From the IMG/VR virus record IMGVR_UViG_2690316205_000005: a DNA stretch of 11,536 nt. One strand, given 5' to 3'. The DNA is from a virus (Duplodnaviria > Heunggongvirae > Uroviricota > Caudoviricetes). Of the stretch, positions 6,001-9,000 are shown piece after piece. Position numbers: made by a program. How positions within the stretch are numbered: position 1 is the first letter of the stretch; every line of letters starts with the position of its first letter.

Positions 6001-9000
6001 CACTCTGGTCTTCCAGTTTCTTATTGACGGTCTGCGTGATTTCATTGCTGACATCCGTAATGGACGTCCTGATTTCAGCCAGGTCAGGCGCAAGCTGACC
6101 GTTATCAATCTGCGTCCACAGCTCCTGAGCCAGATGGGTTTTCCCTATCTCGCCTTTGAAAAAATCCAGATAACCGGATGCATCATCACTCGGCTGACCA
6201 ACAGCCTCCACGAATGCCGATTTGCCAACGGTGTTCACACTGCGGATATAAAAGTAATAATCATGGCCCGGTTTGATATTGATACTGGCGGCTATCCAGT
6301 ACAGCGCCGTGCCAAGATAGCGTGCTGTGGTTTCAACCTGCCTGATATCCGCAATCCGCTTTTCCGAAAACCAGAACTCAAACTGCACCGTCGGGTCATA
6401 TACAGCCAGTTTCGGGACCGCCGTTATCTGAAAATACCCCGGTATCAGTTCAATAGTGACAGGCGCTGCCGGTGNNNNNNNNNNNNNNNNNNNNNNNNNN
6501 NNNNNNNNNNNNNNNNNNNNNNNNNNNNNNNNNNNNNNNNNACCGTCGGATCATAAACCGCAAGATGCGGCGTGGCGGTTATCTGAAAATAGCCCGGCGT
6601 CAGCTCAATCCGCGACAGCGCTGCCGGTGCGGCAATCCGGAACGATACCGACGCCGGATCGCCCTGCTGCCCCCGGGCATTTACCGCCCGGACTGTCAGA
6701 CTGTAATTCCCCAGCGCCAGCTGCCTGAAGCGGTATGTGGTTTCCGTCGTCCTGGCTGTGCTGACCAGCCGCTCACTGCCGTCGTCCGCTGCCACGGTCA
6801 GGCGAAGCAGGAAGCTCACACCCTTCACCACCTTCGGCGTGTCCCATCGCGCCAGCACCTGATATTCCCCGCTGTCTGCGGTGACTTCGGCAGTCAGGTG
6901 CTGCACCGCTGGCGGCGTGACACCATTCACCGTGCCGCGCCGGTCACCGTCAAAGTGTGCCCCGTTATCCACGATGGCCTCTTTTTCCGGCACATGCTGC
7001 ACGGCGGTGATGGCATACGTGCCGTCGTCGTTCTCACGGATACTCACGCAGCGGAACAGACGCTGGCGCAGCGTCGGCAGCTTCAGCCCCCACACGCTGT
7101 ATTCTGCAACGCCGTCAGGAACCCGGCTCACTTTCACCTTCACGCCGTCGGTGACGGACTGGACCTCCACGCTGACCGGATTGCCACTTCCGTCAACCAG
7201 GCTTATCAGCGTGGTACCGGAGGACGGCAGCGTGATTTCACGGTCGAGCGTCAGCGTCCGGGTCTGGCTGTTCACCGCCAGTACGCGACCACCGGTGCTG
7301 ATACCGGCATAATCATCATCGCAGATTTCAATGACATCACCCGGTACATGGCGAAGCCCTTCTGCGCCCACGCTGAAGTCCACGGTCTGCGTTTCCAGCA
7401 GTTCCGTTTTAATCAGCCACAGCCCGGCTCGGTGTGCCTGCCCCCGGCTGGTACAGCCAAAGGCATCCATCTTCGTGACATTACGACCGTAACGGGCAAT
7501 GGCCTGCGTATCCTCCACAAGCTCTGTCGCCGTCTCCCAGCCGTTATCCGGGTCAATCCAGTTCACCTCAACGGCATTATGGCGGTCCTTCAGGGCGCTG
7601 AAGCTGTAGCGGAACGGCGCGCCATCGTCCGGCATCACCACATTACTGCGGTTATAGGTCCACACCTTATCCGACGGTCGGTCCTGCACGAACGTCAGCA
7701 TCTGTCCGTTCCATACCGGCATACAGCGCATCGCCGAGCAGAAATCACTGAGAACATCCCACGCCTTACGCTGTGTGGTCAGGTAAGAGTTACAGGTGAT
7801 GCGCGGCTCCGTGCCGCCAAATCCGTCCGTCACTGACTGGTCGCAGTACTGGCCGATGACATACAGCGCCCATTTGTCCACATCTGCCGCACCAAGACGT
7901 TTCCCCATGCCGTAGCGCGGATGAGTGAGCATGTCCCACAGACACCAGGCCATGTTGTTGCTGTATGCTGGCTTAAGCGTTCCGTCCCAGATACCGCTGT
8001 ATTGCCGCGTCTGCGGATTATAGTTCGACGGCACCTGCAGAATGCGCCCGCGAAGATGATAATTGCGACTCACCTGCTGGTTACCGAACTGCTCTGAATC
8101 CACCTGCACGCCGACCAGCGCCGTGTTCGGGTAGCACTGTTTCACATCGATGATTTCGGTGTATGACGACCAGAGCGTTTTGTTCTGCAGCTGGTCTGTG
8201 GTGCTGTCCGGTGTCATCCTGCGCATCCGGATATTAAACGGGCGCGGCGGCAGGTTACCCACCACCACCGAGGCCAGATACTGCGAAGTGGTTTTGCCCT
8301 TAATGGTGATGTCTTTTTCCGTCACCCAGCCACCGTTACGCTGTATCTGAACCAGCAGGCGGACTTCCGACGGATTCCGGTCACCCTTTGAGGTGGTTTC
8401 CACCAGTGCCTGCACACCGAAGGTCAGGCGCAGACGGTCGATGTTTGCCGACGTGATGGTCCGGGTGATCGGCGTGTCATATTTCACTTCCGTACCCAGC
8501 ACCGTCTCGGAGCCGGAGGATTCAAAACCCTCCGGCGGTGTCTGCTCCTGCTCACCTGCACGGAACACCACCGTAACACCGGAAAAGTTTGTCTTCCCCT
8601 CGCTGTCCAGGACCGGCGTACCGTTCAGCAGCACGCTTTTTAATCCATCCACCGGACCGTCAACCGGCCCTTCGCTGATGGCATCAATCACACTCAGCAA
8701 CTGCGTGGATTTCAGGTTGTCCTTCGCTTCGCGCGGGGTATGCCCCTTACTGCTGCCTTTACCCATTCCTCACGCTCCATAAACGACAAAACCGCCCGCA
8801 GGCGGTTTCACATAAAACATTTTGCATCAGCGACCAATCACCACAACCTGACCACCATCCCCTTCGTCTGCCGTGCTGATCTCCTGAGAAACCACACGTG
8901 ACCCCACGCGCATTTCACCGTACAGAACGGGCAGAACATTGCCCTGGGCAACCATGTTATCCAGTGACGAGAAATACGTGTTCTGCTTACCGTTATCCGT

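Follow-up and report, generated by a model that had tools for sequence, protein, structure and literature searches.

A gap-flanking repeat in the J gene of a phage scaffold is very probably an assembly artefact that fuses two lambda-like prophages

The J gene in the virus record IMGVR_UViG_2690316205_000005 is interrupted by a run of 67 N, and this run is flanked on both sides by diverged copies of the same segment of the gene. The record is a stretch of 11,536 nt that was analysed as a whole and is called the window here. Based on comparisons with finished genomes, we consider it very probable that the gap-flanking repeat is an assembly artefact and that the J gene as written is a chimera of the J genes of two lambda-like prophages of a Shigella sonnei-type genome. 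Both copies abut the N-run, the segment is single-copy in finished relatives and each copy matches a different paralogue; these are the marks of a false duplication. As judged by sequence comparison, the 88-nt duplication is not a real biological feature and the 67-N gap stands for no real sequence; in fact, the contig ends are separated by −88 nt. Assembly errors of this class are known.

The N-run at positions 6475-6541 is the sole one in the whole window. The direct copies to its left (V_L) and right (V_R) start 155 nt apart and are identical at 65 of 88 positions (74%) if aligned ungapped, or to 78.7% with one indel pair. Their local alignment score is 47, compared to 7.2 ± 1.2 with a maximum of 14 in 2000 shuffles, and no other homologue of V_L or V_R was found within the window. 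The initial annotation had described a same-orientation repeat of 87 nt with about 74% identity; the repeat is real, and orientation and identity were as described, but the copies are 88 nt long. Translation of V_L and V_R on the minus strand gives the same stretch of J, and indeed the same peptide that had been read from both copies before. As written, the J gene (8766..5114, minus strand) has 3653 nt, a length that leaves a remainder of 2 when divided by 3. Its halves are out of frame with each other across the 67 N, and the ORF list for the window contains one J frame of 773 aa, which runs through the Ns, and another of 424 aa. A single uninterrupted J frame does not exist in the sequence as given.

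The features of the window are compiled in Table 1. The window is most likely a whole short-read scaffold from the draft of an IS-rich genome, bounded by the ends of multi-copy IS elements. Its first 48 nt recur in E. coli genomes, with a median of 10 matches in each, and in E. coli strain 104 the IS1A transposase gene directly adjoins the matching position. At the other end, the tape-measure gene H is cut by IS600 at about 11490. The lom gene has an 83-nt deletion between two CGCCAG repeats, with the joint at about 4567-4572, by which the frame is shifted and the product is 160 aa compared to 199 aa. The exact 160-aa product is present in 1212 blocks of public assemblies, including CP000038.1 (S. 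sonnei Ss046), and for this reason the truncated lom is regarded as a real lineage marker and not as an assembly error.

Table 1 Features of the window and location of the two J genes in a finished chromosome. Positions refer to the window unless a record is named.
Feature	Position	Strand	Length or site count	Basis or remark
IS1 terminus (inverted-repeat end)	1..48		48 nt	Left scaffold end; reverse complement of IS1 end
Tail fibre assembly gene (tfa), prophage A	798-1379	-		ORF and reference annotation
Side tail fibre gene (stf), prophage A	1379-4468	-		ORF and reference annotation
lom of prophage A, truncated	4561..5043	-	160 aa	Alignment to E. coli MB51 lom
J C-terminal part, pure J_A	5114..6327	-		A-type diagnostic sites
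Diagnostic sites, left contig	5588-6327		84 consecutive A-type sites	84/84 diagnostic in 5582-6327
A/B-identical stretch	6328..6367	-	40 nt	Left contig switch
Left contig end, prophage B allele including V_L	6368..6474	-		B-type diagnostic sites
Diagnostic sites, left contig	6368-6462		25 consecutive B-type sites	25/25 diagnostic in 6368-6474
Direct copy V_L	6387-6474		88 nt	Abuts left edge of N-run
Scaffold gap	6475..6541	.	67 N	Reference overlap of flanks
Right contig start, prophage A allele including V_R	6542..6631	-		A-type diagnostic sites
Direct copy V_R	6542-6629		88 nt	Abuts right edge of N-run
Diagnostic sites, right contig	6550-6631		24 consecutive A-type sites	24/24 diagnostic in 6542-6631
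A/B-identical stretch	6632..6674	-	43 nt	Right contig switch
J N-terminal part, J_B with 5 isolated A-type bases	6675..8766	-		Diagnostic sites
Diagnostic sites, right contig	6675-9060		134 B-type and 5 isolated A-type sites	139 diagnostic in 6675-9084
Prophage B tail genes I, K, L, M and 3' remnant of tape-measure gene H	8827..11490	-
IS600 (IS3 family), first part	11491..11536	.	~46 nt	Right scaffold end; match adjoins annotated IS600 transposase
J_A	CP023645.1 ~1,271,719-1,275,216	Plus strand of record
J_B	CP023645.1 ~1,955,955-1,959,434	Plus strand of record

The duplicated segment is single-copy wherever else it was counted. This holds for 156 of 156 J loci fetched before the count, and phage lambda, represented by a locus (L005) that is 100% identical to J02459.1 over the part of J concerned, has one copy, as had been noted for lambda J in the initial annotation. 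When 1.8 kb spanning the gap was used as a query, thousands of records of complete E. coli genomes and of phages matched, and in every match listed the span in the record was 1646 nt, that is, the query minus 155. When the left and right flanks were aligned separately, they overlapped by 88 nt in the reference in every alignment. The contig ends thus overlap in the references and are 74% identical, in line with the earlier suggestion of ends that overlap but are too diverged to be merged. A pattern of two conserved cores at a spacing of 120-150 nt had no match in IMG/VR and none in JGI metagenome contigs; the single conserved core matched at least 120 IMG/VR contigs. An exact core pattern matched 30 loci in genome contigs, and the source of the window was not among them; an exact 159-nt pattern of the right flank had no match in viral or metagenome contigs, and no exact counterpart is on record for the 773-aa product that runs through the Ns. 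Finished chromosomes with either of the two source prophages described below, A or B, have one copy each, and their J is intact, with 1165 or 1159 aa.

Removal of the Ns together with either copy (155 nt) yields an intact J ORF of 3498 nt that encodes 1165 aa, the length of the annotated gpJ in the closest references. Reconstructions based on V_L and on V_R differ at six residues only (717-719, 723, 732 and 734). The repeated segment corresponds to residues 713-742 of J and is located where the Pfam domain Ig_J (611-714) gives way to Ig_J_second (718-818). In addition to these two, the 1165-aa reconstruction contains FNIII-A_GpJ, Phage-tail_3, Phage_Tail_Tip and Ig_GpJ_C, and its residues 1-836 match the solved structure of lambda J (8iyk_J) with E = 0. 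After repair, nothing sets the gene apart from other members of the lambda J family.

With complete E. coli genomes alone, the best identity over the window was 95-96%, and the two halves had different nearest neighbours. Due to gene mosaicism, this comparison could not decide whether J is a chimera. The question was settled by exact-protein look-ups with the truncated lom, L, M and tfa, by which the two source prophages were located. Prophage A has the order IS1-tfa-stf-truncated lom-J_A (1165 aa)-I-K-L-M-H and is present in finished chromosomes including CP000038.1, the chromosome of Shigella sonnei Ss046. It is 99.68% identical to positions 1-6474 of the window, with zero mismatches in 3500-6367 and mismatches at 6368 and beyond. 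Although V_L sits on the A side of the gap, the patch in prophage A is an exact V_R (88/88) and not V_L, and beyond the patch prophage A is only 94.8% identical to the window. Prophage B, found by exact look-up with the L protein of the window, has the order IS600-truncated H-M-L-K-I-J_B (1159 aa)-lom, and in its loci the truncated H is preceded by an IS3-family transposase. Exact matches to the L and M proteins of the window are found in prophage B of finished chromosomes. Positions 6542-11536 are 99.4% identical to prophage B, and nearly all mismatches are in the patch because prophage B carries an exact V_L (88/88); from 6675 to 11536 the identity is ~99.9%. V_L is absent from J_A and V_R is absent from J_B.

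Both prophages are present in one finished chromosome, CP023645.1, in which J_A and J_B are ~95% identical to each other and lie ~684 kb apart in the same orientation (Table 1). The initial annotation had considered that J alleles from two lambdoid prophages of one genome might have been joined, and such a pair of prophages is indeed found here. Upstream of the patch, in the part coding for the N-terminal 712 aa, the J gene of the window is identical to J_B at 2131 of 2137 positions and to J_A at 2021 of 2137. Downstream of the patch, in the part coding for the C-terminal ~424 aa with the receptor-binding end, 1271 of 1273 positions are identical to J_A. This agrees with the chimera proposed before, in which the N- and C-terminal parts come from different alleles.

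The arrangement around the gap became apparent when A and B from CP023645.1 were taken as references and positions 5582-6474 and 6542-9084 of the window were classified base by base. At each classified position the window has the base of A, of B or of both, without a single private difference. In the left contig, the switch from A to B takes place inside 6328-6367 and, in the right contig, inside 6632-6674, both of which are identical in J_A and J_B (40 and 43 nt). Between these two stretches lies the 88-nt patch, V, in which J_A and J_B differ strongly. The order of alleles along the J gene is B, A, gap, B, A. The copies are crossed: the B-allele copy is on the A contig and the A-allele copy is on the B contig, which means that both contig ends are themselves chimeric. 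The B-type part of J has isolated A-type bases at 6892, 6898, 7549, 8017 and 8164, and at these five sites the B base is present in all six finished prophage B loci compared. The isolated bases could be due to consensus mixing between the paralogues, or they could be small real gene-conversion tracts.

The same base-by-base pattern bears on the question whether the arms come from two prophages of one genome or from two strains in a mixed culture or a cross-contaminated sample. The window alone cannot separate paralogues from strain variants, and drafts do contain foreign J genes, as seen with phage lambda in many non-enteric drafts. However, both alleles are found with their full flanks in one finished chromosome, and in the classified range one genome explains every base of the window with zero private differences, so that a second strain is not needed. 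We regard a mixed origin of the arms as highly improbable.

In the initial annotation, a real tandem duplication of a domain boundary, with the intervening sequence masked, had been named as the alternative to a chimera. It would comprise ~155 nt where two Ig-like domains of J meet, with 67 nt between the copies unread or masked. Two copies in the same orientation at a distance of 155 nt are what would be expected of it, and the description of the genome collection mentions a few N-masked stretches. Against it, such a duplication is absent from the 156 loci counted, from IMG/VR and from metagenome contigs, and with 67 nt between the copies the period of 155 breaks the frame. The copies have diverged by 26%, yet each agrees at 88 of 88 positions with an existing paralogue, and this is a different one for each copy; with 74% identity to each other and 100% to separate paralogues, they do not have a shared recent origin within one gene. 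Moreover, the order B-A-gap-B-A would need three exchanges within ~350 nt, and the edges of the N-run coincide exactly with the edges of homology. Taken together, a tandem duplication is extremely improbable, and the alternative put forward in the initial annotation has to be abandoned. The idea that the Ns are a mask over real sequence was likewise rejected as the preferred reading, in view of the broken frame, the coincidence of N edges and homology edges and the order B-A-gap-B-A.

How could a false repeat of this kind arise? The source genome would have at least two lambda-like prophages, laid out as in the finished relatives. In the assembly graph, J_A and J_B would then form a bubble in which two paths lead into a shared stretch, split into two diverged arms, come together in a second shared stretch and leave again as two paths. 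Coming from the A side, the assembler would have crossed one shared stretch and ended in the B arm; coming from the B side, it would have crossed the other and ended in the A arm. Read pairs would have linked both contigs, and the scaffolder would have written an estimated gap of 67 N and left the ends unmerged because the overlapping ends are only 74% identical. The outcome would be a gap with a false 88-nt duplication at its edges, within a J gene that is part prophage A and part prophage B. What has been observed is that the segment is single-copy elsewhere, that each copy equals a paralogue, that both paralogues are present in one chromosome, and the pattern of A and B sites; the behaviour of the assembler is inferred. 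The IS1 and IS600 ends of the scaffold are typical of repeat-bounded short-read contigs.

Some details do not fit this proposal well. A careful assembler whose reads exceed ~45 nt would be expected to keep A and B apart across a shared stretch of 40 nt, so that the bubble does not fully account for the path taken. The contig ends extend only 8 and 12 nt into the flanks common to both copies, which misfits a simple k-1 overlap, and a positive gap estimate of 67 is odd if the true distance is −88. One simple assembler k was considered and rejected, since it would have to account at once for IS remnants of 48 and 46 nt, for switches in shared stretches of 40 and 43 nt and for overhangs of 8 and 12 nt at the gap, and these lengths disagree.

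V occurs in nature in different allelic forms. Among the 152 loci scored, the patch was of the V_R type in 114, of the V_L type in 7 and of another type in 31, and three of the 7 V_L-type loci have the exact V_L (88/88). The sequences that flank the patch hardly differ from one allele type to another. V_L-type and V_R-type patches differ by 22-23 nucleotides but only by 6 amino acids. From these comparisons, the 88-nt V at the junction of Ig_J and Ig_J_second behaves as an exchangeable cassette between conserved flanks. In the finished genomes of E. coli PK8241 and Z1323CEC0013, one prophage has a J of the V_L type and another a J of the V_R type, and the two J genes of each pair share long identical runs around the patch. 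The E. coli genomes with the best J match to V_L, CFSAN029787 (L003) and the O121 strain 201805972 (L004), contain genes for ipaH effectors immediately past the tail-fibre genes of the prophage, and because of these genes both strains appear enteroinvasive and Shigella-like.

It is tempting to ask whether the J gene of the window could be a real hybrid that arose by recombination between prophages, with an N-terminal part from B, a C-terminal part from A and a single V, so that only one of the arms near the gap is spurious. A-type and B-type sites meet within each contig, 6327 (A) and 6368 (B) in the left one and 6631 (A) and 6675 (B) in the right one. If the assembler used words or reads longer than ~45 nt, at least one of these two joins would have to stem from hybrid molecules that really exist. 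In addition, the ORF is intact in either single-copy reconstruction, mosaicism is known for J genes, and V behaves in the population as a patch that can be exchanged. However, the A arm and the B arm are both present, so at least one of the joins would still be an artefact. With the layout seen in CP023645.1, where the two genes have the same orientation at a distance of ~684 kb, a hybrid would need a tandem duplication of ~684 kb or a different chromosome layout, and a hybrid of this kind is present in none of the finished relatives examined. A real hybrid J of this kind is very unlikely. It is very unlikely, too, that the source strain carries a recombinant J, with the head end from prophage B and the receptor-binding end from prophage A, or that its two J genes have exchanged the 88-nt patch reciprocally. 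If this were true, the switches in 6328-6367 and 6632-6674 would be real recombination joints and only the juxtaposition at the gap would be false. The reading that we prefer is that of an assembly artefact, in which the repeat and the fusion of the halves of J would both be products of the assembly.

Unusual J loci were also seen in other records. In IMGVR_UViG_2695420746_000006 (L157), prophage B is followed by a single N at 1619, by ~1.45 kb of prophage A and by prophage B again, and ~423 nt of J are repeated. In IMGVR_UViG_2660238446_000005 (L158), ~140 nt of J_B are traversed again without a gap. Both are probably further misassemblies driven by paralogues. A different kind of anomaly is the presence of J in drafts of unrelated bacteria, such as Neobacillus, Kitasatospora, Pseudomonas, Shewanella, Bradyrhizobium and others (L005, L006, L008, L009, L011-L013, L015, L017, L018, L021, L022, L025-L029, L033 and L034). 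The contigs are mostly short, several have names with ~1x coverage and most share identical alignment patterns. This looks like contamination of the assemblies with lambda DNA.

For the use of the record, it follows from the proposed artefact that the J gene model of the scaffold is unfit for predicting host range, for typing alleles or for claiming a domain duplication. Moreover, the tail-fibre end of prophage A and the tail genes of prophage B are not truly adjacent, as the scaffold would suggest. More generally, paralogous prophage genes in IS-rich drafts of Shigella and E. coli may give rise to gap-flanking false repeats and chimeric genes.

False duplications in assemblies, in which two diverged versions of a locus are kept side by side, mostly with a gap between them, have been described before (PMC9516828). 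The window resembles the 'heterotype' false duplications of vertebrate assemblies (Ko et al. 2022, PMC9516828) in that both diverged versions of a locus were kept and in that better assemblies of closely related genomes have only one copy of the segment. Unlike in the vertebrate case, the versions are here paralogous prophage genes of a haploid bacterium and not haplotypes of a diploid, and the arms are crossed, so that the join fuses loci that are ~684 kb apart. The gene order, M-L-K-I-J-lom-stf-tfa, is that of lambda-like prophages, and the repaired J has the full domain set of lambda gpJ (8iyk), although it has 1165 aa compared to 1132 in lambda. In contrast to lambda J, the gene as written has a broken frame, 88 duplicated nucleotides and halves from two prophages. 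The short V patch between conserved flanks is reminiscent of the mosaic exchange of patches in lambdoid tail genes. This mosaicism would be the natural background that misled the assembler; it does not provide evidence for a duplication in the source genome.
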